Source of the DNA: a virus
Length of the DNA stretch: 64,000 nt
Direction: 5' to 3' (one strand)
IMG/VR virus record: IMGVR_UViG_3300037258_000282
Location: 88,590 to 152,589 of that record
Part shown: positions 2,479 through 64,000 of the stretch, piece by piece
Layout of the letters: each line of letters starts with the position of its first letter
How positions within the stretch are numbered: the first letter of the stretch is position 1
Position numbers and translations under genes: made by a program
Notes under the pieces: model-generated
Databases searched by the model: none
What the model was told of the DNA's origin: nothing
The model's input: only the letters and a program-made list of their open reading frames with translations

Positions 2479-4611
2479 TTATCCCGAGAAGTTGCCAACT
2501 ACCTCTGCGAAGGCCACTCCGGTCGGAACAGCTACAAAATTAAGTTGTATAAAGTTAATTGAGCGCGATGGCTTGACGTATATGTCGGCCACAAACTGAT
2601 TTGAGTCAATTACCTGAGCCGTGTTGTTGGTGGTATCGCAGACAACTTCGAAGTCAAAGATACCATCGAGAGCCTTGATTCCCGCAAGATATGGAGTCAC
2701 CATATTGACGAACGCCGCGCGGGTAAACGCGTCATTTAGCTGGAATAGGGTATACTTCGCGGCTATAGAGATGGCCTTCTCTATGGTGATGAACAGGCGC
2801 CTGACGTTGATGCGATCGAAGGCCGACGGCTGCGACAGCATCGTCTTGTCTCCGTAGAGGATCGTTCCCTGAGCCGGGAAAGTCACTACCGGATCTATGC
2901 CGTTTGGATACAGGAGATTCCTATCCGAGAGGGCCGGATTGAAGCGCATCTTGACGACGTTGTTTATCTGACCGCGGTTGAAGCCGGCCGGTGAGTCCCA
3001 AGGATATCCGATGGAATCATTCCTCACGCAGAGCCCGGCGATGTCTCCGTTGGTCGGAACCCACCTATAGACGTCATTATACCTATCGTACTGGTACTTA
3101 TACCCGGAATCGATCAGGGCATAGGAAGTAGACGAGAGGATGTTCCTCCAGTTTATGAGCGCTACGGCCTCATTATTATAGTTGTTAGTGATGACCGCGT
3201 CGTCTGGAGTGATAAACACCACGCAGTCTAGGCGAAATTGGGCGATATTCTGGATCAGCCACTCACTTAGGAGGAAGTTGTTGATCTGCATGCCGGATCC
3301 ATCTAGGGCTACCGTAGCTCCACCGATAGGTCTTCCCTGAAGGATCAGAGACACGTCGATGTCTTCGGTCGACTGAAACTTCAGGTAGCCGTTGGTGATG
3401 GTCGCCAGCGAGGCGTTGGACTCGCCGACTCCGTCTTGGCCGGAGTTAAAGGCGATCGTAAGTGGAAAGCTGTCTGACGAGCTGAGGAGCGACGTGGAGA
3501 TCGCGGAGTTGGCCGCGTGATCTGGGCGATCGTTTACTCCCCAGGCGTACTGAGAGTTCTGGTTGAGGACGGTCTTCCAGAAGTTCGTCACACCACCTAC
3601 GGTCAGCGCGTCGGTCGCGCGAGATAGGTTGGTGTAGGTCTCGAGAATGGTTCCAGGGACTCCCGAGAAATCTCCGTTCTCATCTTGAATGACCACGTGC
3701 ATTCCATCGATGATCGACGCGTTGGACGTCTTCGTCGCCATATACGGCGTCTGCTGAGGTGGAACTCCGATGACGTTCTGAAATTCCCAGAACCTAGTGA
3801 TGAAGTTGGTGTTCGCCGCGGCAGATGAGTTGATCGAGAAGTCCGTCGATACGATATACTTCGAGGTCAGTCCGACAGATACGGTCGAGATATTCGAAGT
3901 CGCGTTCGTGGTAAGTACCGGAGCTGATATCGTCGCGATCTGAGAGTACTGCGTTCCGACAGAGGTATTTCCCAGCACTATGTAGTCGCCAACAGAGAAG
4001 TTAGAGATCAGCGTGTTGACCGCCGCAGTTATCTGCGTTCCGTTAGCGCCGACCATCACGAGTGATACGGCGTTAGATCCAGTATTGATCGACGCGGTAG
4101 TCACTACAGCGTTTGAAGATACGGCGTTTGGAAGAAAGACGTTTGAGGTATAGGCATTGACCGAGTCGCACACCGACACGAGAAGTGAATTTCCGAGCCC
4201 GCCCGGCCACTTAGCGATGAACATCGCGTTAGTGTCGAATGATACGACGTTCTCAAATTGAGCCTCGTTAGTGACCACGCAAAGCGCGACGTTAGCGACC
4301 GGTCCGGTGTTGGCGATAGCGTTGAGAGCGGCATTGGCGTCACCAGAGGTCGTGTTGGCCGCGCGAACGACGAAGAGCTGATTACCATAGGACAGGAAGT
4401 TAGCCGCGGTAAACCAAGTCTGGAAGTTGTTCTGGTTAGGAGATCCAAAGGTCGACACTAGAGTCGACTCGGAGTTGATCTGAATGGCCTCTCCAACTGG
4501 TCCCCAGCTGAAGATACCGGCAATCGCTCCCTGAGTAGTGCCTACCGCCGGAACTATGGTAGTTAGGTCAAACTCAGTTACGTTTACGCCGGGAGATAGT
4601 TGAGTCGCCAT
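2479..4611 (-). CDS. gp18: Tail sheath protein
   Basis: MATQLSPGVNVTEFDLT, FSWGP, SPAGFNRGQI, SAFDRINVRRLF, YVKPSRSINFIQLNFVA. Confidence 0.97.
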   Translation of the reverse strand: MATQLSPGVNVTEFDLTTIVPAVGTTQGAIAGIFSWGPVGEAIQINSESTLVSTFGSPNQNNFQTWFTAANFLSYGNQLFVVRAANTTSGDANAALNAIANTGPVANVALCVVTNEAQFENVVSFDTNAMFIAKWPGGLGNSLLVSVCDSVNAYTSNVFLPNAVSSNAVVTTASINTGSNAVSLVMVGANGTQITAAVNTLISNFSVGDYIVLGNTSVGTQYSQIATISAPVLTTNATSNISTVSVGLTSKYIVSTDFSINSSAAANTNFITRFWEFQNVIGVPPQQTPYMATKTSNASIIDGMHVVIQDENGDFSGVPGTILETYTNLSRATDALTVGGVTNFWKTVLNQNSQYAWGVNDRPDHAANSAISTSLLSSSDSFPLTIAFNSGQDGVGESNASLATITNGYLKFQSTEDIDVSLILQGRPIGGATVALDGSGMQINNFLLSEWLIQNIAQFRLDCVVFITPDDAVITNNYNNEAVALINWRNILSSTSYALIDSGYKYQYDRYNDVYRWVPTNGDIAGLCVRNDSIGYPWDSPAGFNRGQINNVVKMRFNPALSDRNLLYPNGIDPVVTFPAQGTILYGDKTMLSQPSAFDRINVRRLFITIEKAISIAAKYTLFQLNDAFTRAAFVNMVTPYLAGIKALDGIFDFEVVCDTTNNTAQVIDSNQFVADIYVKPSRSINFIQLNFVAVPTGVAFAEVVGNFSG

Positions 4612-4666
4612 GCCTCTTTCCTTTCAGTAGTTTAAACTACAACTGATTATTATTCTAATTTCCGAG

Positions 4667-4674
4667 TATTTATA
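4667..4674 (-). promoter_or_regulatory. T4-type late promoter TATAAATA upstream of gp18
   Basis: Exact TATAAATA on the minus strand, in the gp17-gp18 intergenic gap. Confidence 0.8.
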
Positions 4675-4706
4675 ATACTGAGGCTTTCACTACAGTTCCG
4701 TATTTA

Positions 4707-6368
4707 TCAGAATTTCTCCTGCTTATAGTACATCCAGTTGTCACCGTCGTATGGTCTGACGTTTGGATCCGGCTCATCCCTGCCGTCATACACGAATAGA
4801 AATTGGGCTAGATCCTGCTCGATCTCTTCGTCTGTCTTATCTCTAAGCTTCTGCATGGTATGGATGTTGGCATAGTCCTTGAAGTATCCTTGATCTGACA
4901 GCCATGAGAAGAGCACGAGACCCATGACCAAGTCGTCGTGCTTTCCCGGCTCGGCCTCATATGAATCTTTCTTCTTTGAGAACGTCGAGAGCTCCTCGAT
5001 AGTGTTAAAATCATTTATGATGAGCTGATTCTGCTCCACGAGAAGCTTTAATATCGAGCAACCTATGTTCTTAACTACTTTAGTAGTCCTGATACCCTTA
5101 TCAATCTGCTTTCCACCGAAGCCAGAGGTGATCCTCTTTCCAGACCTTCCGGCATTCTCAGTAAAGAGAACGTTGTCATAGTTGAAGTCATAGTGCAGGG
5201 AGGTAGAGACCTGCTCACCGATATCGTTGATCTCTACTAGAACTGCCGAATTGTTGTAGGCGATCGCGACTCTATGCACTATGGCGGCGTAGTCCAATGG
5301 AGTGATGTAGTTGTCTCTATACACCGCGACCTGCTCATATGGCATCTCGGTGACGTCGATAAGTTGAAACGCAGAGTAGTCTAGACCTTTTCCACGTGAG
5401 ACGTCGCAGACCATCATGTAGATCCTATTAGGTCGCGGAGAGACATACACGTGAAGTCCCTCGGAAGCGGTCTCTGGACTCTTCCATATGAGCTCCTTGA
5501 GCTTCCATCCCGCGATAAGCGTTCCAGATGAACCTTGAAATTCGCACTCCATCTCTTGGGCGAATTTCTGAAGATCTCCATTCATTCCATCGAGAGTGTC
5601 TTTCTTCCACTTCTCGTCCCTTCCCGGAACGTCCTTCCAGTGGACTCTCAGAGGCTTGAACTGATTTTTTCTCTCCTTGGCTCCTACCCAAAACTTATGA
5701 AAGTGATTGAGTCCAAATGGCGTGGAGACCAAGATGATCTTTGAGTCGACGCCGGACGAGATAGTCGGATAGACTGAGGTGTAGAACTCATCCCACTTCT
5801 CGATGTGAGCCGCCTCGTCGACGAAGAGAAGTGATATGGAGTATCCTCGGATCGCGTCTTTTGTAGTAGTAGAAGCTATAACGCGAGAGTTGTTGTCTAG
5901 CTCAAACGATCCCTCGTTCCACTTCAGAACTCCATGCTGAAGCCACTTGGGAAGATGCTCGTATGCGAGCTGAATGCGTCCTAGTATCTCGCGAGCGACC
6001 TCTCCCTTGTTGGCTAGCAGCGCGACGGTCTTCTCTGACTGAAACAGAACGTACCACAGTATGAAGCCGCACGTAGTGGTTGACTTGCCACTTTGACGCG
6101 CGGAAGTTATAATATTGAACCTCTCATTTTTGAAGTTCAACAACATCTGCTTCTGATAGTCATATAGCTTAAAGTGCACGAGTCCCTTATCTAGAGATAC
6201 GATCTTCATGTAGGTCTCTACGAAGTAGATGGGATCCTCGGAGCACTTGACGTACTCTTGAATAAGTTCCGGCGTCCACTCTATCTGCTGATTAGCTCTC
6301 TTTAAGAGTGGATTTCCGTTGTAGGCTTTTACTAGGTCGAAATTTCGATCATCCTGCATACTTACCAT
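4707..6368 (-). CDS. gp17: Terminase large subunit
   Basis: Walker A ARQSGKST, Walker B LLFVDEAAH, nuclease CDVSRGKGLDYS and HDDLVM; YNGNPLLKRAN N-terminus. No intein seen. Confidence 0.97.
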   Translation of the reverse strand: MVSMQDDRNFDLVKAYNGNPLLKRANQQIEWTPELIQEYVKCSEDPIYFVETYMKIVSLDKGLVHFKLYDYQKQMLLNFKNERFNIITSARQSGKSTTTCGFILWYVLFQSEKTVALLANKGEVAREILGRIQLAYEHLPKWLQHGVLKWNEGSFELDNNSRVIASTTTKDAIRGYSISLLFVDEAAHIEKWDEFYTSVYPTISSGVDSKIILVSTPFGLNHFHKFWVGAKERKNQFKPLRVHWKDVPGRDEKWKKDTLDGMNGDLQKFAQEMECEFQGSSGTLIAGWKLKELIWKSPETASEGLHVYVSPRPNRIYMMVCDVSRGKGLDYSAFQLIDVTEMPYEQVAVYRDNYITPLDYAAIVHRVAIAYNNSAVLVEINDIGEQVSTSLHYDFNYDNVLFTENAGRSGKRITSGFGGKQIDKGIRTTKVVKNIGCSILKLLVEQNQLIINDFNTIEELSTFSKKKDSYEAEPGKHDDLVMGLVLFSWLSDQGYFKDYANIHTMQKLRDKTDEEIEQDLAQFLFVYDGRDEPDPNVRPYDGDNWMYYKQEKF

Positions 6369-54931: not shown

Positions 54932-55061
54932 GTATCTTGAGTAGGGTCCAACTCCCTACTCAAGAGAGTACTCGATTCGGTCGCAAGCCTCGCCTACAGG
55001 AGGACAGGCGCGTCGAGCTTAAAGCGGTAGATGTTGCTATCATAAGTGATTGAATAAACTT

Positions 55062-55091
55062 AGGGGACTGTCGAGCGCTCGACAGTCCCCT
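55062..55091 (+). terminator. Perfect 30-bp palindrome / terminator
   Basis: AGGGGACTGTCGAGC-GCTCGACAGTCCCCT followed by a short T run. Confidence 0.65.
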
Positions 55092-55153
55092 TTATCATAG
55101 AGTGATGATCGGGATCCTCCGAGCTATCATCCTATGATTTTTTTCAAAATCAT

Positions 55154-55182
55154 TTGACATCTTCTTAAAGAGGTGATATGTT
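55154..55182 (+). promoter_or_regulatory. sigma70-like early promoter
   Basis: TTGACA-N17-TATGTT with TG. Confidence 0.7.
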
Positions 55183-55211
55183 TATATCCATCGACAAGAG
55201 GAGAGAGTCAG

Positions 55212-56183
55212 ATGTCTCATGAGATTGAAATTATCGACGGTAAGGCCGCGATGGCGTATGCCGGAGCGGTTCCCTGGCACGGACTGGGAACGAAGGTTCC
55301 ATCGGATCTGACTCCCATACAGATGCTTGAGGCCGCCGGGCTTGACTGGAAGGTGGAAAAATCTCAGGCCTACGTCGTGGTCGACGACGAAGTTCAGCTG
55401 ATCGATAGAGCCGCCCTGATCCGATCTTCGGATAAGAAGGTGCTCGACGTCGTCACAAATGACTGGAATCCCGTACAGAACGAGACGGCATTCGAGTTCT
55501 TCAACGAGTTTATCGCGACCGGCGACATGGAGATGCATACGGCTGGATCTCTTCACGGAGGTCAGATTGTTTGGGCTCTCGCCAAGACCAAAGATTCATT
55601 TGAGCTCTTCGGTGGAGATAGGATCGACTCCTATATGCTCTTCACTAACTTTCATCGGTATGGATGCGCGATCGACAACAGGTTCACTCCGGTTCGCGTC
55701 GTATGCAATAATACCATTCAGATCGCTTTAGCGGCCTACGACAACGATCGAATATTCAAGAGCTCTCATCGAAGAGAGTACATTCCGACACTCGCCAAGA
55801 AGGCTCTCGGAATAGCCACGGATGGCATGAAGAGCTATAAGGAGCGCGCGGAGTTTCTCGGCTCCAGGCAGGCCAAGGGCGAGGATATAGTCGACTACTT
55901 CAACCGAATATTTCCGATGAACTCCGACGGCGATAGTGAGAAGGTCCGAAGAAAGGATGTCTCAAAGAACGCCTCGCGCGCTCGGGCCATTCTTGAGACA
56001 CAGCCGGGCCATGAATTCGCCGCCGGAACGTGGTGGCAGCCATTCAATGCCGTGACGTACCTAGTAGATCACGTGATGGGAAGAAGCGATGACACTCGCA
56101 TGACTTCCGCGTGGTACGGCGCCAACCGAACTCTCAAGAATCGGGCCCTCACGGAAGCCCTCGCGATGGCCGACGCGTCGTGA
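55212..56183 (+). CDS. DUF932/DUF945-family phage protein
   Basis: MSHEIE...MAYAGAVPWHGLG, AGLDWKV, PVQNETAFEFF, TAGSL, FTPVRVVCNNT, GTWWQPFNAVTY.VDH, SAWYG. Confidence 0.88.
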   Translation: MSHEIEIIDGKAAMAYAGAVPWHGLGTKVPSDLTPIQMLEAAGLDWKVEKSQAYVVVDDEVQLIDRAALIRSSDKKVLDVVTNDWNPVQNETAFEFFNEFIATGDMEMHTAGSLHGGQIVWALAKTKDSFELFGGDRIDSYMLFTNFHRYGCAIDNRFTPVRVVCNNTIQIALAAYDNDRIFKSSHRREYIPTLAKKALGIATDGMKSYKERAEFLGSRQAKGEDIVDYFNRIFPMNSDGDSEKVRRKDVSKNASRARAILETQPGHEFAAGTWWQPFNAVTYLVDHVMGRSDDTRMTSAWYGANRTLKNRALTEALAMADAS

Positions 56184-56240
56184 TATGATTTATGAATAGG
56201 ACTCAGAGGACGCGAAGTCCTCTGATCGACAGGAGGTAAC

Positions 56241-56837
56241 ATGACCAAGCACTTTGAATTTACCGATGAGACTTTATTCGACTCCGGAATAATCCTCAGG
56301 AGGATTCGTGCTACTCGGAATATTCCAATCTATGGGGTAGAGACCGGAGACCTCGGGGGATGGATCGAGCGCGAGGAGAACCTATCGGACTCCGGATGGG
56401 TCTATGAAGACGCTCGAGTCTATGGGGACGCCATGGTCTATGGGGACGCTATGGTCTATGAAGACGCTCTGGTCTATGGAAGCGCTAAGGTCTACGGGAG
56501 CGCTCGGGTTTTCGGGGACGCTCGGGTCTTCGAGAGCGCTTTGGTCTATGGGGACGCGGAGGTCTATGGAAGCGCTTATGTCCATGGGAACGCTCAGGTC
56601 TATGGGTACGCGGAGGTCTATGGAAGCGCTAAGGTCTACGGGAGCGCTCGGGTCTTCGGGGACGCTCGGGTCTTCGAGAGCGCTCAGGTCTATGGGGACG
56701 CTCAGGTCTATGAAGACGCTTTGGTCTATGAAGGCGCTAAGGTCTATGGGGACGCTAAGGTCTATGGGAGAGCTCGGGTCTTCAGAAACTCCGTGATCTC
56801 TGGCTCAACCCACGTCACTCTAGATCTTAGATCGTAA
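56241..56837 (+). CDS. Hexapeptide-repeat protein, array copy 1
   Basis: KHFEFT...GDLGGWIEREENLSDSGWV plus VxGxAx repeats; AGGAGG SD. Confidence 0.85.
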   Translation: MTKHFEFTDETLFDSGIILRRIRATRNIPIYGVETGDLGGWIEREENLSDSGWVYEDARVYGDAMVYGDAMVYEDALVYGSAKVYGSARVFGDARVFESALVYGDAEVYGSAYVHGNAQVYGYAEVYGSAKVYGSARVFGDARVFESAQVYGDAQVYEDALVYEGAKVYGDAKVYGRARVFRNSVISGSTHVTLDLRS

Positions 56838-56847
56838 AGCGCGACCA

Positions 56848-56876
56848 TTGACATCGAAGCGAGATCTTGATAAGGT
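56848..56876 (+). promoter_or_regulatory. sigma70-like early promoter
   Basis: TTGACA-N17-TAAGGT with TG. Confidence 0.65.
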
Positions 56877-56902
56877 ATCTTCCATTGGATAGGAGGTTCG
56901 AC

Positions 56903-57457
56903 ATGGCTAATCACTTCGAGTTCACCGGTGAGACTACTACCTTCGATGGAGTCACCCTCCGTAGGATCAGGGCTACTCGAGATATACCCGAGTACGCCGT
57001 CGCCGTCGGAGACCTCGGGGGATGGATCGAGCGCGAGGAGAACCTATCGGACTCCGGATGGGTCGATGGAGAGGCCAAGGTCTATGGGGACGCTCGGGTC
57101 TTCGGGAACGCTCTGGTCTCCGGGAGCGCTCAGGTCTTCGGGGACGCTCGGGTCTTCGGGTACGCTCAGGTCTTCGGGTACGCTCGGGTCTTCGGGAGCG
57201 CTCAGGTCTTCGGGAACGCTCGGGTCTATAATTCCACGATCGAGCCGTCGATCGTGGACCGAATCTATGAGACGCCCGGCGCGCAGCTATCCGAAAAGGA
57301 CTGTAGGAAGACTGCGGTAAGTTCATTCGTTGAAAATATCGTGAAGTCAATGATCCACGGCTCCGACGCCCCACTCGCGAAGTTGTCCGTAGAATTCACC
57401 GACGGGACGAAGATCACTGTCGATCTCCCGAAGCGGTCCAAGCGCGCGGCAGATTAG
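56903..57457 (+). CDS. Hexapeptide-repeat protein, array copy 2, with unique C-terminal domain
   Basis: MANHFEFTG start after AGGAGG; short repeat tract; C-terminus LSVEFTDGTKITVD. Confidence 0.85.
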   Translation: MANHFEFTGETTTFDGVTLRRIRATRDIPEYAVAVGDLGGWIEREENLSDSGWVDGEAKVYGDARVFGNALVSGSAQVFGDARVFGYAQVFGYARVFGSAQVFGNARVYNSTIEPSIVDRIYETPGAQLSEKDCRKTAVSSFVENIVKSMIHGSDAPLAKLSVEFTDGTKITVDLPKRSKRAAD

Positions 57458-57458
57458 A

Positions 57459-57487
57459 TTGACATATGCCCACGATCCTGATAATCT
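57459..57487 (+). promoter_or_regulatory. sigma70-like early promoter (duplicated at 60603)
   Basis: TTGACA-N17-TAATCT with TG. Confidence 0.65.
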
Positions 57488-57499
57488 GGAAATGAGGAG

Positions 57500-57724
57500 T
57501 TGCACGAGATGATAGAGAAAGCGGATTATCAGAGGACCGAGCTCGGTTCCATCATCGGAAAGACTGTAAAGTCGATAACGCATGACTATAGGGCCCCGAT
57601 GGCTCGATTCACCGTTGAGTTCACCGATGGAATGAAGATGTCGGTCGATCACTCTGGAATGTTCGACTCGAATGGGTATCTGTTCGACACTGACTCGATA
57701 AGGTACCCATATGAGAGGACTTGA
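57500..57724 (+). CDS. Hypothetical protein
   Basis: IIGKTVKSI...FTVEFTDGMKMSV; downstream of a promoter and SD. Confidence 0.6.
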   Translation: MHEMIEKADYQRTELGSIIGKTVKSITHDYRAPMARFTVEFTDGMKMSVDHSGMFDSNGYLFDTDSIRYPYERT

Positions 57725-57965
57725 TCGCGACCACCACCGCCCTCCCATGCACATCGGATATTCTAAGGGAACATGGGTGATGTTTCTCGAGAACGGCGAG
57801 CCACCCATGCGGTTTGACTCCATCGTGTCCATAGAAGCGTTCTGTGAGGCGAGATGGCCGCATGAGTATGGGCCCAAGAATCAGAGGGCTGAACGCGAGA
57901 GTATTAGAGACGACAACGTCAGGTGGTTTAACTCCTGGCCTAAGTTTAACCGGAGAAAAAGATGA
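57711..57965 (+). CDS. Hypothetical protein
   Basis: 84 aa; ATGA overlap with the next gene. Confidence 0.55.
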   Translation: MRGLDRDHHRPPMHIGYSKGTWVMFLENGEPPMRFDSIVSIEAFCEARWPHEYGPKNQRAERESIRDDNVRWFNSWPKFNRRKR

Positions 57966-58789
57966 GCAGTCACTACAGGCTTACCGAAGAGACTATGACT
58001 CTCGATAAGACAGTACTTCATAGAATTCAGGCTCTCCGAGATATTCCAATCTATGGGGTAGAGACCGGAGACCTCGGGGGATGGATCGAGAGGGAAGATA
58101 ACTTATCGGACTCCGGATGGGTCGGGGAAGAGGCCATGGTCTACGGGGACGCTCGGGTCTATGGGGACGCTTGGGTCTGTGGGGACGCTCGGGTTTTCGG
58201 GAGCGCTTTGGTCTATGGGGACGCTTGGGTCTTCGGGAGCGCTTTGGTCTATGGGGACGCCATGGTCTATGAGAGCGCTCGGGTCTTCGGGAGCGCTCGG
58301 GTCTTCGGGAGCGCTTTGGTCTCCGGGAGCGCTCAGGTCTATGGGGACGCTCGGGTCTATGGGAGCGCTCGGGTCTATGGGGACGCCATGGTCTATGGGG
58401 ACGCTCGGGTCTTCGGGAGCGCTCAGGTCTCCGGGAGCGCTTGGGTCTCCGAGAGCGCTTTGGTCTATGGGGACGCTTGGGTCTACGGGGACGCTCGGGT
58501 CTTCGAGAGCGCATGGATCTACGGGGAAGCGGAGATCTCCGGGAACTCGAAGGTCTCCGAGAGCGCTCGAGTCTATGGGAGCGCTTGGGTCTCCGGGAGC
58601 GCTCGGGTCTATGGGAGCGCTGAGATCTATGACGCTCGAGTCTCCGGGAGCGCTCGAGTCTCCGGGAGCGCTTTGGTCTCCGGGAGCGCTCGTGTCTATG
58701 GGAACGCTCGTGTATATGGGGACGCGGGGGTCGGAGGAGAGACCGTGGTCTATGACTCAACCCACGTTACTAGGAGTTTGCGTCTATGA
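57962..58789 (+). CDS. Hexapeptide-repeat protein, array copy 3
   Basis: MSSHYRLTEETMT...GDLGGWIEREDNLSDSGWV plus a long repeat tract. Confidence 0.85.
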   Translation: MSSHYRLTEETMTLDKTVLHRIQALRDIPIYGVETGDLGGWIEREDNLSDSGWVGEEAMVYGDARVYGDAWVCGDARVFGSALVYGDAWVFGSALVYGDAMVYESARVFGSARVFGSALVSGSAQVYGDARVYGSARVYGDAMVYGDARVFGSAQVSGSAWVSESALVYGDAWVYGDARVFESAWIYGEAEISGNSKVSESARVYGSAWVSGSARVYGSAEIYDARVSGSARVSGSALVSGSARVYGNARVYGDAGVGGETVVYDSTHVTRSLRL

Positions 58790-59277
58790 AGCACTTTGAG
58801 TTCACCGGAGAGACTTTATCCGACTATGGAGTCACTCTCAGAAGGATTCGGGCTACTCAAGATATTCCAGTCTGTGGAGTCAAGGCCGGAGACCTCGGGG
58901 GATGGATCGAGCGAGAGGAGAACCTATCGGACTCCGGATGGGTCGGGGAAGAGGCCAAGGTCTACGGGAGCGCTCAGGTCTCCGGGAGCGCTTGGGTCTC
59001 CGGGAGCGCTCAGGTCTATGGGGACGCCTGGATCTACGAGAGAGCTCGAGTCAATGAAAGTGCTAAAGTCTACGAGAACGCTCAAGCCTACGGAAGCGCC
59101 TGGATCTACGAGAGCGCTCAGGTCTACGGGTGCGCGGATGTCTACGGGAGCGCGGATGTCTACGGGCGCGCCCAGGTCTTTGGGAGCGCTCGAGTCTACG
59201 GGAACGCGGATGTCTTTGGGAGCGCTCAGGTCTATGGGGACGCGGAGGTCTATGGGAGCGCGGAGGTCTACTTCTGA
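58786..59277 (+). CDS. Hexapeptide-repeat protein, array copy 4
   Basis: MKHFEFTGETL head; ATGA overlap. Confidence 0.85.
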   Translation: MKHFEFTGETLSDYGVTLRRIRATQDIPVCGVKAGDLGGWIEREENLSDSGWVGEEAKVYGSAQVSGSAWVSGSAQVYGDAWIYERARVNESAKVYENAQAYGSAWIYESAQVYGCADVYGSADVYGRAQVFGSARVYGNADVFGSAQVYGDAEVYGSAEVYF

Positions 59278-59359
59278 GGACTACGGTGGTTTAACCGGAG
59301 AAAAAGATGAGCAGCTATCGTCACTACAGGCTTACAGGTGGTTTTAACCGGAGAAAAAG

Positions 59360-59956
59360 ATGAGCAGCTATCGTCACTACAAGCTTACCGAAGAGACTAT
59401 GACTCTCGATAAGACAGTACTTCATAGAATTCAAGCTCTCCGAGATATCCCGAGAGCTATGGTTAGAGTCGGAGACCTCGGGGGATGGATCGAGCGAGAG
59501 GAGAACCTATCGGACTCCGGATGGGTCGATGGAGAGGCCAAGGTCTACGGGGACGCTCGAGTCTCTGAGGATGCTCAGGTCTATGGGTACGCGGAGGTCT
59601 ATGGAAGCGCTAAGGTCTACGGGAGCGCTCGGGTCTTCGGGTACGCTCGGGTCTTCGAGAGCGCGGAGGTCTACGGGGACGCTCGAGTCTATGGAGACCC
59701 ATGGGTCTATGGAGAAGCTCGAGTCTTTGGGTACGCCCGAGTCTATGGCGACGCGCGCGTATATGACTTCAGAAAAGTCTACGGAAGCGATGAGGTCTAT
59801 AACAACGCCCAAAGCTTGAAACAAGAGCCGGGGCCCGCGCCCACTGAGAGATCTACTGAGAGATCCGAGTCTACAGACTCTTCGCTTCCTAAGCTTCCTA
59901 AGATCTCAATAGAGTTCGTAGATGGAGTAGTGAAGATCGCGATAGGTCTGAAGTGA
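59360..59956 (+). CDS. Hexapeptide-repeat protein, array copy 5, with unique C-terminal tail
   Basis: MSSYRHYKLTEETMT head; ends ISIEFVDGVVKIAIGLK. Confidence 0.85.
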   Translation: MSSYRHYKLTEETMTLDKTVLHRIQALRDIPRAMVRVGDLGGWIEREENLSDSGWVDGEAKVYGDARVSEDAQVYGYAEVYGSAKVYGSARVFGYARVFESAEVYGDARVYGDPWVYGEARVFGYARVYGDARVYDFRKVYGSDEVYNNAQSLKQEPGPAPTERSTERSESTDSSLPKLPKISIEFVDGVVKIAIGLK

Positions 59957-59983
59957 AGATCGTCGTCGACATGGGATCCTAAC

Positions 59984-60625
59984 ATGAAGCACTTCGAGTT
60001 CACCAGAGAGACTTTATTCTTCAATGGAGTCACCCTTCATCGAATTCAAGCTCTCCGAGATATCCCGAGAGCTAAGGTTAGAGTCGGAGACCTCGGGGGG
60101 TGGATCGAGAGGGAAGATAACTTATCGGACTCCGGATGGGTCGGGGAAGAGGCCAAGGTCTTCGGGAACGCGGAGGTCTTTGGAAACTCTCGGGTCTTCG
60201 GGAGCGCTCGGGTCTCAGGGGACGCTTGGGTCTACGGGGACGCTTGGGTCTTTGGGCGCGCTCTGGTCTCAGGGGACGCTTGGGTCTCCGGGGACGCATG
60301 GATCTACGGGCGCGCTCTGGTCTCCGGGGACGCGTGGGTCTTCGGGGAAGCGGAGGTCTCCGGGAACTCGAAGGTCTACGAGAGCGCTCGAGTCTCCGGG
60401 AGCGCTTGGGTCTCCGGAAGCGCTCGGGTCTATGGGAGCGCTGAGGTCTATGACGCCGGACGAGTATATCAAGACGCCAAGGTCTTCGGGAACGCTAGAG
60501 TCAATGGCATCGCCCTAGTCTCCGGGAGCGCTCGAGTCTCCGGGAGCGCTCAACCCACGTTACGGAACGAAGATCACTGTCGGTCCGAGTGCGCGCGCGA
60601 GATTGACATAGGCCCACGATCCTGA
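59984..60625 (+). CDS. Hexapeptide-repeat protein, array copy 6
   Basis: Chimeric head (KHFEFT plus HRIQALRDIPRA). Confidence 0.85.
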   Translation: MKHFEFTRETLFFNGVTLHRIQALRDIPRAKVRVGDLGGWIEREDNLSDSGWVGEEAKVFGNAEVFGNSRVFGSARVSGDAWVYGDAWVFGRALVSGDAWVSGDAWIYGRALVSGDAWVFGEAEVSGNSKVYESARVSGSAWVSGSARVYGSAEVYDAGRVYQDAKVFGNARVNGIALVSGSARVSGSAQPTLRNEDHCRSECAREIDIGPRS

Positions 60626-60631
60626 TAATCT
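60603..60631 (+). promoter_or_regulatory. sigma70-like early promoter (copy of 57459)
   Basis: TTGACA-N17-TAATCT. Confidence 0.65.
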
Positions 60632-60715
60632 GGAAATGAGGAGTTGCACGAGATGATAGAGAAAGCGGATTATCAGAGGACCGAGCTCGGTTCCATCATC
60701 GGAGAGTTCGCGTCT

Positions 60716-61354
60716 ATGAAGCACTTTGAGTTCACGGGAGAGACTCTACTCCACTCTGGAGTCACTCTCAGAAGGATTCGGGCTACTCGGGATATTCCAA
60801 TCCATGGAGTCAAGACTGGAGACCTCGGTGGATGGATCGAGCGCGAGGAGAACCTATCGGACTCCGGATGGGTCGGGGAAGAGGCCAAGGTCTCCGGGTA
60901 CGCTCGTGTCTACGGGGACGCTCAGGTCTCCGGGAACGCTCATGTCTTCGGGTACGCATGGATCTACGAGAGAGCTCGAGTCAATGGAAGTGCTAAAGTC
61001 TACGGGAGCGCTCGTGTCTATGGGAACGCCTGGATCTACGAGAGCGCTCATGTCTTCGGGTACGCATGGATCTATGGGAGCGCTCGTGTCTACGGGTATG
61101 CTCAGGTCTCCGGGAACTCGAAGGTCTCCGAGAGCGCTCGAGTCTATGGGAGCGCTCAGGTCTATGGGAGCGCTCAGGTCTCCGGGGACGCTCGGGTCTT
61201 CGGGCGCGCTCGGGTCTATGGGCGCGCTCAGGTCTATGGGGACGCTTTGGTCTATGGAGACGACGCTTTGGTCTATGGAGACGCTTTGGTCTATGGGGGC
61301 GCTCGGGTCGGAGGAGAGACCGTGGTCTATGGCTCAACCCATGTATGTTACTAG
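60716..61354 (+). CDS. Hexapeptide-repeat protein, array copy 7 (possible in-frame N-extension from 60644)
   Basis: MKHFEFTGETL at 60716; the upstream in-frame segment copies the first 20 codons of the 57500 gene. Confidence 0.85.
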   Translation: MKHFEFTGETLLHSGVTLRRIRATRDIPIHGVKTGDLGGWIEREENLSDSGWVGEEAKVSGYARVYGDAQVSGNAHVFGYAWIYERARVNGSAKVYGSARVYGNAWIYESAHVFGYAWIYGSARVYGYAQVSGNSKVSESARVYGSAQVYGSAQVSGDARVFGRARVYGRAQVYGDALVYGDDALVYGDALVYGGARVGGETVVYGSTHVCY

Positions 61355-61366
61355 GAGTTCGCGTCT

Positions 61367-62131
61367 ATGAAGCACTTTGAGTTCACGGGAGAGACTCTGG
61401 AGTCACTCTCCACGGGAGAGACTCTACACTCTGGAGTCACTCTCAGAAGGATTCGGGCTACTCAAGATATTCCGAATGGAGGAGTCAAGGCCGGAGACCT
61501 CGGGGGATGGATCGAGAGGGAAGATAACTTATCGGACTCCGGATGGGTCGGGGAAGAGGCCAAGGTCTCCGGGCGCGCGCGGGTCTTCGGGGACGCCATG
61601 GTCTTCAGGAGCGCTTGGGTCTATGGGAGCGCTCAGGTCTCCGGGAGCGCTTGGGTCTGTGGGGACGCCATGGTCTATGGGGACGCTCAGGCCTTTGGGT
61701 GCTCCCGAGTCTTTGGGGACGCTGAGGTCTTTGGGGACGCTCTGGTCTATGGGGACGCGAGGGTCTTTGGAAACTCTCGGATCTACGAGAGCGCGCTGGT
61801 CTTCGGGTACGCTCAGGTCTCCGGGAACGCTCATGTCTTCGGTGACGCTCACGTTCGTGGGAGCGCTCGGGTCTTCGTGGACGCGAAGGTCTCCGGGCGC
61901 GCTCGGGTCTTCGGGAGCGCTCTGGTCTTCGGGTACGCTCAGGTCTTCGGGAGCGCTCGTGTCTATGGGGACGCTCAGGTCTTTGGGCGCGCCCTAGTCT
62001 ATGGGGACGCTCGGGTCTATGGGGACGCTCTGGTCTATGGGGACGCTGAAGTCCTCGAGCGCGCGGAGGTCTACGGGGACGCTGAAGTCTATGGAGGCGC
62101 GCTCTACGGTACTCATAGGAGACATGACTAA
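61367..62131 (+). CDS. Hexapeptide-repeat protein, array copy 8
   Basis: Head with an internal duplication (ETLESLSTGETLHSGVTL); long repeat tract. Confidence 0.85.
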   Translation: MKHFEFTGETLESLSTGETLHSGVTLRRIRATQDIPNGGVKAGDLGGWIEREDNLSDSGWVGEEAKVSGRARVFGDAMVFRSAWVYGSAQVSGSAWVCGDAMVYGDAQAFGCSRVFGDAEVFGDALVYGDARVFGNSRIYESALVFGYAQVSGNAHVFGDAHVRGSARVFVDAKVSGRARVFGSALVFGYAQVFGSARVYGDAQVFGRALVYGDARVYGDALVYGDAEVLERAEVYGDAEVYGGALYGTHRRHD

Positions 62132-62630
62132 GCACTTTGAGTTCACGGGAGAGACTCTACGGAAGCGCCTGGGTAACTCTCGAGTCTATGGGAACGCCTG
62201 GATCGCTCCTAGTCTCTACGGGGACGCGCCTGGATCAGAGCGGACTCAGACTCCGAGAGCGAACTCCAGCGAACTCCAGCGGACTCCAGCGGAAGAGAGT
62301 GAACTCCAGCAGACTCCAGCAGACTCCAGCAGACTTCAGCGAACTCCAGCGGACTCCAGCAGAAGAGAGCAGACTCCAGCAAACTCCAGCAAACTCCAGC
62401 AGACTCCAGCAGACTCCAGCAGACTCCAGCGGAAGAGAGCGGACTCCAGCAGACTCCAGCAGACTCCAGCAGACTCCAGCAGACTCCAGCAGACTCCAGC
62501 GGAAGAGAGCGGACTCCAGCGAACTCCAGCGGACTCCAGCGGACTCCAGCGGACTCCAGCAGACTCCAGCAGGAGAGCGAACTCCAGCGAACTCCAGCAG
62601 ACTTCAGCAGACTCCAGCGGACTCCAGTAG
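62124..62630 (+). pseudogene. Degenerate paralogue head (MTKHFEFTGETL) fused in frame to the 10-bp satellite
   Basis: AGGAG SD plus ATG 62124; scrambled repeat fragments, then TPADSSRLQQ-type decapeptides up to TAG 62628-62630. Confidence 0.55.
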
Positions 62631-64000
62631 ACTCCAGCAGAAGAGAGCGAACTCCAGCAGACTCCAGCAGACTCCAGCAGACTCCAGCAGACTTCAGCAG
62701 ACTCCAGCAAACTCCAGCAAACTCCAGCAGACTCCAGCGGAAGAGTCCAGACTCCAGCAGACTTCAGCAGACTTCAGCGAACTCCAGCGGACTCCAGCAG
62801 ACTCCAGCAGACTCCAGCAGACAGACTCCAGCAGACTCCAGCGGAAGAGTCCAGACTCCAGCAGACTTCAGCAGACTTCAGCAGACTTCAGCGAACTCCA
62901 GCGGACTCCAGCAAACTCCAGCAGACTCCAGCGGAAGAGAGCGGACTCCAGCAGAAGAGAGCAGACTCCAGCAAACTCCAGCAAACTCCAGCAGACTCCA
63001 GCAGACTCCAGCGGAAGAGAGCGGACTCCAGCGGGAAGAGAGCGGACTCCAGCAAACTCCGGCAGACTCCAGCAGAAGAGAGCGAACTCCAGCAAACTCC
63101 GGCAGACTCCAGCGGAAGAGAGCGGACTCCAGCGGAAGAGAGCGGACTCCAGCAAACTCCGGCAGACTCCAGCGGAAGAGAGCGGACTCCAGCAAACTCC
63201 GGCAGACTCCAGCGGAAGAGAGCGGACTCCAGCAAACTCCGGCAGACTCCAGCGGAAGAGAGCGGACTCCAGCAAACTCCGGCAGACTCCAGCGGAAGAG
63301 AGCGGACTCCAGCAGACTTCAGCAGACTCCAGCAGACTCCAGCGGAAGAGAGCGGACTCCAGCAGAAGAGAGCAGACTCCAGCAAACTCCAGCAAACTCC
63401 AGCAGACTCCAGCAGACTCCAGCGGAAGAGAGCGGACTCCAGCAGACTCCAGCGGACTCCAGCGGACTCCAGCAGCTCCGAGCGAACTCCAGCGGACTCC
63501 AGCAGACTCCGAGCGAACTCCAGCAGACTCCAGCGGACTCCAGCGGACTCCAGCAAACTCCGGCAGACTCCAGCGGAAGAGAGCGGACTCCAGCAGACTC
63601 CGGCAGACTCCAGCAGACTCCAGCAGACTCCAGCAAACTCCAGCAGACTCCAGCGGAAGAGAGCGGACTCCAGCAGACTCCAGCAGAAGAGAGCGAACTC
63701 CAGCGGACTCCAGCAGACTCCAGCGGAAGAGAGCGGACTCCAGCAGCTCCGAGCGAACTCCAGCGGACTCCAGCAGACTCCGAGCGAACTCCAGCAGACT
63801 CCAGCGGACTCCAGCGGAAGAGAGCAAACTCCGGCAGACTCCAGCGGAAGAGAGCAGACTCCAGCAGACTCCAGCAGACTCCAGCAGACTCCAGCAGACT
63901 CCAGCAAACTCCAGCAGACTCCAGCGGAAGAGAGCGGACTCCAGCAGACTCCAGCAGAAGAGAGCGAACTCCAGCGGACTCCAGCAGACTCCAGCGGAAG
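62240..64000. repeat. 10-bp-period satellite (ACTCCAGCAG and variants), >1.7 kb, continues past window end
   Basis: Units are ACTCC/AAGAG/ACTTC followed by AGCAG/AGCGG/AGCAA/AGCGA/GGCAG; four exact 40-bp higher-order copies at 63141-63300. Confidence 0.97.

Follow-up and report, generated by a model that had tools for sequence, protein, structure and literature searches.

A kilobase-scale 10-bp minisatellite at the contig end of a T4-like phage genome and its possible origin from a decayed paralogue

Introduction

Satellites described in prokaryotes are mostly short, and many encode amino-acid repeats; phages are not mentioned in that account (Subirana & Messeguer 2019, PMC6749651). Here we analyse the last 64 kb (64,000 nucleotides, the window) of the 152,589-bp IMG/VR record IMGVR_UViG_3300037258_000282, a contig of a T4-like soil phage, which ends in an array of 10-bp units. 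The nearest described class for this array is the non-coding prokaryotic satellite: both consist of head-to-tail units, lack a coding period and are lineage-specific, and the prokaryotic satellites are thought to originate from replication errors. The array differs from them in its size, about 173 units over at least 1.76 kb, and in being carried by a phage. Phage genomes are generally regarded as almost free of satellite DNA. Positions below are those of the window, except that positions in the whole record are preceded by the word contig.

Two other kinds of repeat invite comparison. Iterons are about 12–22 bp long and occur in about 3–12 copies beside an AT-rich unwinding region, with a cognate initiator. 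Iteron arrays such as T4 oriE, lambda ori and P1 incA resemble the array in their one-orientation direct repeats near helical phase and in having a smaller second copy elsewhere, whereas the array has 10-bp units, 173 copies, a G+C content of 60% and no identified initiator. Poxvirus terminal repeats and herpesvirus reiterations are kilobase arrays of short units with variable copy number, found at defined termini or in regulatory regions; these blocks are replicated in eukaryotic cells, in contrast to the array, which lies inside the genome of a circularly permuted phage.

In the hyperplastic regions of T4-like phages, promoter and stem-loop cassettes mediate gene shuffling (PMC2839356, PMC4122927). 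The setting of the array is similar, with variable, lineage-specific early genes and duplicated cassettes, and recombination between short repeats is an accepted source of variation in such regions. Limited full-text searches of the literature returned no paper on T4-like phages that joined tandem repeats with hyperplastic regions, and no kilobase satellite in them. Similarly limited searches for phage minisatellites returned nothing specific, and we state novelty cautiously.

Results

The array is a kilobase-scale satellite with two alternating pentamers

We called the array with Tandem Repeats Finder (TRF) and parsed its units by anchoring on AGC/GGC. TRF reported one array on the + strand at 62263–63995 (period 10, 172.8 copies, 75% matches, 1% indels, score 1607), preceded by degenerate units from about 62236 and continuing to the final base of the window. 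The anchored parse yielded 172 units, and 160 of 169 spacings were exactly 10 bp; phase slips comprised three 11-bp units, one 8-bp unit and one 14-bp unit. Each unit consists of a pentamer formed by AGC or GGC plus RR, followed by ACTCC (the majority), AAGAG (about 29 units) or ACTTC (about 9–12), and the eight common unit types occurred 47, 34, 19, 19, 16, 9, 9 and 7 times. None of the 29 AAGAG pentamers was adjacent to another, the minimum spacing being 20 bp, and the AAGAG unit with GG almost always preceded the GG form of the ACTCC unit. Since AAGAG is nearly always followed by its matching ACTCC unit, the 20-bp pair is a real sub-structure of the array.

Similarity between units had maxima at lags of 4, 8, 12 and 24 units, because a four-unit higher-order repeat occurs five times. 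Four exact 40-mers occupy 63141–63300 within a longer, perfectly 40-periodic block; the longest repeated substring of the array, 150 bp, begins at 63125 and again at 63165, and two further segments have exact internal duplicates (Table 1). The + strand is 34% C, 30% A, 26.5% G and 9% T (60% G+C), and 82% of the array's 55-mers are distinct. An origin by chance is impossible. With its many head-to-tail copies, its lack of coding constraint and the signature of slippage or unequal exchange in its higher-order repeats and segmental duplicates, the array has the features of a satellite. These results bear out the first-pass annotation of the window, which had described a kilobase-scale 10-bp satellite with a two-pentamer grammar, isolated AAGAG units, well-kept phase and a T-poor + strand, and which had placed the four 40-mers and the recurring longer blocks correctly to within a few bases.

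The array shares sequence with the rest of the phage genome

A comparison of k-mers between the array and the rest of the genome showed that a 35-nucleotide array segment (Table 1), which contains the only 11-bp GGG variant unit of the array, is the exact reverse complement of contig 4680–4714, and that this distant copy lies between phage genes. A second link is to the YdcK-solenoid paralogues that flank the array. The core 8-mers CGGACTCC and then GGGAAGAG stand 10 nucleotides apart on the same strand in the conserved heads of seven of these paralogues, and they recur in the array with order and strand unchanged, 3 nucleotides apart; shuffled genomes gave an expectation of 0.02 co-occurrences of the two 8-mers per genome. 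The pentamers of the array also rank among the commonest words of the genome. At its left edge the array emerges by a gradual shift from the hexapeptide units of a relic gene to degenerate satellite units, and AAGAG and ACTTC units, which make up about one-fifth of it, were absent from all the foreign arrays that we found.

Judged from these sequence matches, the array belongs to the phage and not to a eukaryotic contaminant. To the extent that sequence can do so, this answers the concern, raised with the first description of the array, that it might be an artefact or a contaminating eukaryotic minisatellite. The heterogeneity of the units over 1.76 kb and the large share of distinct 55-mers speak against an assembler loop as its source, as compared with the perfect 99-bp array ends of two bacterial contigs described below (L009 and L011).

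A relic paralogue runs into an array that is almost certainly non-coding

Eight co-oriented paralogues lead to a relic open reading frame (ORF) of the same family, which in turn leads into the array (Table 1). The relic retains the first 12 codons of the family and a few hexapeptide units, and extends about 390 nucleotides into the satellite before ending at a TAG at 62628. Its ATG, preceded by AGGAGA, overlaps the stop codon of the upstream paralogue (61367–62131); given this ribosome-binding site and this overlap, the relic is probably translated. A second + frame is open through all 1.76 kb, its sole start being a TTG at 62137 that lacks a ribosome-binding site, and the array itself contains no ATG, TTG or CTG and a single GTG. 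Because 9% T makes stop codons on the + strand nearly impossible, the open frames carry no information.

Pfam searches of the relic and of the open frame matched low-complexity families only. A protein-level search with the 621-residue open frame returned one weak match of comparable length, besides 13 fungal-type ORFs that were short and spurious; none had the phage-specific units. We found no 30-bp (codon) periodicity in the array, its lag-3 identity being 0.148 against an expected 0.155. This result, the period of 10, which is not a multiple of 3, and the lack of a credible start all speak against a coding amino-acid repeat. The array is thus almost certainly non-coding except for the tail of the relic, as its composition and periodicity indicate.

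The array broke the assembly inside a variable early region

The record is classed as linear and 91% complete, and the array runs off its end. The phage is T4-like by its Gp23 capsid family match (E 1e-149) and, from this identity, presumably lytic. T4-like phages package DNA by the headful mechanism and are circularly permuted, so that their genomes lack fixed ends. At the start of the contig stand a promoter-like spacer and more YdcK-solenoid paralogues, and at its end the eight paralogues, the relic and the array. Since the contig starts in the same paralogue family and the genome of a T4-like phage is permuted, the array marks an assembly break inside a gene array and not a genome end, as had been suggested for it. 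On the circular map the satellite sits within the paralogue array, in a variable early region; its right boundary lies beyond the assembled contig, and 1.76 kb is its minimum length.

Nor were two further proposals for the array borne out: it is about 56 kb from the large terminase gene (contig 94088–94699) on a contig with no recorded terminal repeats, which speaks against a packaging site, and no ParB_N domain was found in the 152.6-kb contig, which speaks against a partition site. The array broke the assembly of an otherwise near-complete genome. The contig holds a repeated 150-mer, too long to be resolved by de Bruijn assembly at k ≤ 141, and the number of copies given for the 190-bp perfectly periodic block is therefore unreliable. 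We sought other contigs encoding the last intact paralogue, which might have bridged the gap, and none was on record; a megablast search of phage GenBank records with the left flank (55000–62240) had no match.

Similar units elsewhere occur in small, unrelated arrays

Three consecutive units of the array were found in no other IMG/VR contig and in none of 185,579 prokaryote species genomes (GTDB). In metagenomes the same three-unit pattern occurred in seven stretches, all of them small arrays in unrelated, mostly eukaryote-like contigs, one being bacterial, and looser unit patterns returned only unrelated short arrays or single chance matches. Matches to 20-mers in Binatia genomes proved to lie in one conserved gene, not in arrays. 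TRF found no comparable array in IMG/VR near relatives of the hexapeptide gene (80 loci), where the first-pass annotation had pointed for similar arrays, or near relatives of the DUF932 gene (80 loci).

The small environmental arrays (L006–L011; P0002–P0012) have the same ACTCC plus AGCRG unit and the same period as the phage array, but they comprise 7–25 units with T-containing variants, have unrelated flanks and lack AAGAG and ACTTC units. They are best read, from these unit compositions, as independent origins of one simple unit. Several probably fungal metagenome fragments (P0002/P0008, P0005/P0006 and L006) share the 10-bp array together with conserved flanks, which suggests that they carry a dispersed element bearing the minisatellite. 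On a bacterial contig of assembly LXNJ01, the gene for a putative methyltransferase-like protein of more than 1150 residues (PglX- or type IIG-like by reading) leads into 99 bp of perfect repeats of the same 10-mer; the LXNJ01 arrays (L009:1–99 and L011:1–99) lie at contig ends, a second contig of the assembly starting with the array, and may reflect either an assembly break caused by the repeat or a 3' end that is phase-variable.

Arrays of 12 bp near DUF932 in some relatives were rejected as analogues, as they are small genes encoding four-residue repeats. Several such genes, almost wholly made of 12-bp repeats, surround the DUF932 gene in the T4-like contigs L160–L167, L171 and L172 (for example, L164:9620–9800 and L172:9800–10250); their units read x-D/N-Q-V/I, they have their own ribosome-binding sites and are sometimes in tandem, and they form a repeat-protein family.

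Table 1. Features of the array and its surroundings (window coordinates unless marked contig)
Feature	Position	Strand	Basis or further detail
10-bp minisatellite, ~173 units, cut by the contig end	62236–64000	+	TRF, unit parsing
Perfectly 40-periodic block, four-unit higher-order repeat	63125–63314	+	150-bp repeated substring, 40-mer test
118-bp block, exact copy at 63326–63443	62915–63032	+	
87-bp block, exact copy at 63732–63818	63461–63547	+	
35-nucleotide segment with the 11-bp GGG variant, inverted copy at contig 4680–4714	63012–63046	+	k-mer comparison
26-nucleotide paralogue-head segment (codons SDSGWVGEE) with both core 8-mers	61533–61558	+	Identical copies from 58107, 58928, 60126, 60858, contig 5694 and contig 6249
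Eight co-oriented YdcK beta-solenoid paralogues leading to the relic and array	56241–62131	+	PF18836, phrog_7964/5070 matches
Relic YdcK-solenoid (hexapeptide) paralogue ORF, 168 residues	62124–62630	+	Aligned to four paralogue heads

Discussion

A minisatellite probably grown from a decayed paralogue

The explanation that we favour, with somewhat better than even confidence, is that the array is a native, essentially non-coding minisatellite that arose from a decayed paralogue and grew by slippage and unequal recombination in a variable (hyperplastic) early region. A paralogue in the recombination-prone gene array would have decayed, and a fragment of this YdcK-solenoid gene with two head motifs (encoding SDSG and GEE) would have provided a ~20-bp seed. 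This seed would then have been amplified by slippage during replication and by unequal homologous recombination, with repeated segmental duplications; a record of such growth is visible in the higher-order repeats and in the exact internal duplicates of 87–150 bp. Replication of the T4 type is recombination-dependent, and headful packaging could absorb length changes of a kilobase within the terminal redundancy. The array is probably transcribed passively, as read-through from the operon of upstream paralogues, and only its first ~390 nucleotides would be translated, as the tail of the relic. We infer that the array is neutral; no sequence-specific function is required by the data or apparent in them, and its lineage-specific occurrence fits a young, possibly neutral expansion better than a conserved device.

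Several points weigh against this explanation. Because phage genomes are gene-dense, 1.8 kb or more of neutral DNA in one of them comes as a surprise and prompts thoughts of a function. Selection, and not recent amplification alone, might lie behind the strict 10-bp phase (160 of 169 spacings) and the strong strand asymmetry. The derivation from paralogue heads depends on two shared 8-mers that were picked post hoc, and copy numbers in the 190-bp perfectly periodic block are not trustworthy. The perfect 14-bp palindrome in the inverted copy of the motif, about 70 bp upstream of a promoter-like site, has the look of a site for protein binding.

That a T4-like phage has a native minisatellite of 1.8 kb or more means that phages with headful packaging are able to harbour and enlarge arrays of this kind, and it offers a concrete case of the possible birth of a satellite from the debris of a repetitive gene family. 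The array also accounts for the failure of a near-complete genome to close, and it warns that its own copy numbers are unreliable.

Protein-binding alternatives

The array might alternatively load or titrate a DNA-binding protein that recognises the ~20-bp pair of AAGAG and ACTCC units, as an iteron- or handcuffing-like sink or platform; we consider this unlikely on the motifs seen, although it survives better than any other alternative. A protein-binding reading owes its survival to one observation, the inverted copy of the motif, a 45-bp satellite-like element at contig 4680–4724 in which the AAGAG motif forms the perfect 14-bp palindrome, found nowhere else in the genome. The palindromic copy lies among other iterated motifs of 10–12 bp and 60–100 bp upstream of the promoter-like site (contig 4782–4810) of a DUF2786/DUF7168 gene, and under titration it would be the working operator or origin element. 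The strict phase of the array points the same way, as does a second viral contig that ends in a 10-bp array adjoining iteron-like 32-bp repeats. Against titration, no candidate binding protein was identified, the genes near the array and the motif copy encoding YdcK-solenoid, DUF932 and DUF2786/DUF7168 proteins. The motif occurs nowhere else in the genome beyond the array and this copy, and the array is not conserved in relatives.

The dimensions of the array also fit poorly with the origin iterons once proposed for it. Units of 10 bp repeated about 173 times, with the 20-bp pair present in dozens of copies, fall outside the size of an iteron origin, and this copy number is far above any known iteron set. 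No AT-rich unwinding element was found in the array or to its left (G+C 0.60), the right flank lying beyond the contig. The first-pass annotation had further supposed that a 10-bp period places the sites on one face of the DNA. By arithmetic, assuming 10.5 bp per turn, this holds locally, over about five units, but not overall: each unit is displaced by about –17 degrees, and the sites spiral round the helix in a full circle every 21 units. A more specific version, in which the satellite is a selected, helically phased sink that titrates a host or phage factor (a regulator, a replication initiator or a defence sensor) whose normal target is the palindromic copy, seems to us a little less likely again; if true, no earlier titration array of kilobase scale would be known from a lytic T4-like phage.

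The stretch that holds the palindromic copy, contig 4079–4766, is about 0.7 kb of non-coding DNA dense in short tandem motifs, upstream of the promoter-like site and the DUF2786/DUF7168 gene, for which a single distant relative was found. Its motifs include a 12-bp unit, an 87-bp composite (2.1 copies), a 10-bp unit (4.7 copies) and 11-bp units (4 and 2.7 copies), and the stretch could be an origin or regulatory region. A 12-bp repeat in 4.9 copies at contig 2505–2564, inside a doubtful 110-residue ORF with a TTG start, shares its unit with the non-coding region at 4.1–4.3 kb. The second phage contig broken at a 10-bp satellite is the 65-kb IMGVR_UViG_3300010051_000019 (L175), in which an array of at least 14 units (L175:7486–7628), sharing CTCCAG with those of the present array, ends the contig and directly follows the non-coding region with the 32-bp repeats.

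Artefact, RNA and decoy alternatives

That the array is an assembly artefact or chimera, either a fungal-type minisatellite joined onto the phage or a length and order invented by the assembler, is improbable. Its location at a contig end, the repeated 150-mer that short k-mers would not resolve, and the presence of the same 10-mer in small arrays of eukaryote-like metagenome contigs and in fungal-like spurious ORFs are what such an artefact would leave. They are countered by the exact 35-nucleotide match, with its unique variant unit, inside the phage; by the core motifs common to the array and the flanking paralogue heads; by the AAGAG and ACTTC units (about 20%), which occur in no foreign array; by a left edge that is gradual, degenerate and inside a phage relic gene; and by units that are heterogeneous, whereas the loop ends of L009 and L011 are perfect over 99 bp.

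We assign about the same low probability to an array that acts as RNA. The array has the orientation of the eight genes upstream, and a promoter and terminator scan found no terminator-like site between about 56.6 kb and the array; read-through transcription is likely. Rho terminates transcription on untranslated RNA in which C exceeds G, and past the relic stop more than 1.3 kb of the array is untranslated, with C at 34% and G at 26.5%; the + strand RNA moreover folds worse than 200 of 200 shuffles (z = +3.7). Such a long, untranslated, unstructured and C-rich RNA might form a zone where Rho loads and terminates transcription, or might sequester an RNA-binding protein or Shine-Dalgarno-like sequences. 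However, an unstructured RNA is the automatic outcome of a direct repeat in one orientation, and neither a terminator nor a sponge needs 1.7 kb; an Rfam search of the array had no match, and the array is not conserved elsewhere.

Slightly less credible again is a methylation or defence decoy, in which densely packed short sites in one orientation would absorb a methyltransferase of the host or a sensor of a restriction or defence system. The array contains 100 GANTC, 65 CAGCAG, 121 CTGGAG and 29 CTCTTC sites; GANTC reaches 57 per kb, against 6.2 per kb elsewhere, and the CAGCAG sites are all on one strand. Yet any 10-bp repeat is automatically dense in its own 5–6-mers. GANTC is not avoided in the rest of the genome, where the observed count of 938 equals the Markov expectation, and neither a CcrM-type nor a Dam-type methyltransferase was found in the phage. 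Should protein binding or a decoy prove true, the array would be a phage element of a new type, with a regulatory or counter-defence role, which is only a possibility.

Least probable, by a small margin, is a translated array. It might encode a disordered repeat protein that tolerates frameshifts, since the three + frames share one 10-residue repeat and one of them is open throughout, or it might be a phase-variable switch for a downstream domain, gain of a single 10-bp unit moving the reading frame by +1. The tract follows the start of the relic, which has a ribosome-binding site and translational coupling to the gene before it. Against translation, the coupled frame ends within the tract after ~390 nucleotides, the fully open frame has no credible start and owes its openness to 9% T, codon-scale periodicity is absent, the homologues are spurious short ORFs or low-complexity Pfam families, and any downstream sequence lies beyond the contig end.

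Further features of the contig

The whole contig is rich in GA/CT words, its commonest 5-mers being CTCTC/GAGAG, AGAGA/TCTCT and GAAGA/TCTTC; GACTC/GAGTC ranks tenth, with roughly double the count that equal base frequencies would give. Among the paralogues upstream of the array, a 53-bp unit is tandemly duplicated (96% identity) at 59285–59388, across the start of the paralogue at 59360, and resembles a recombination scar.

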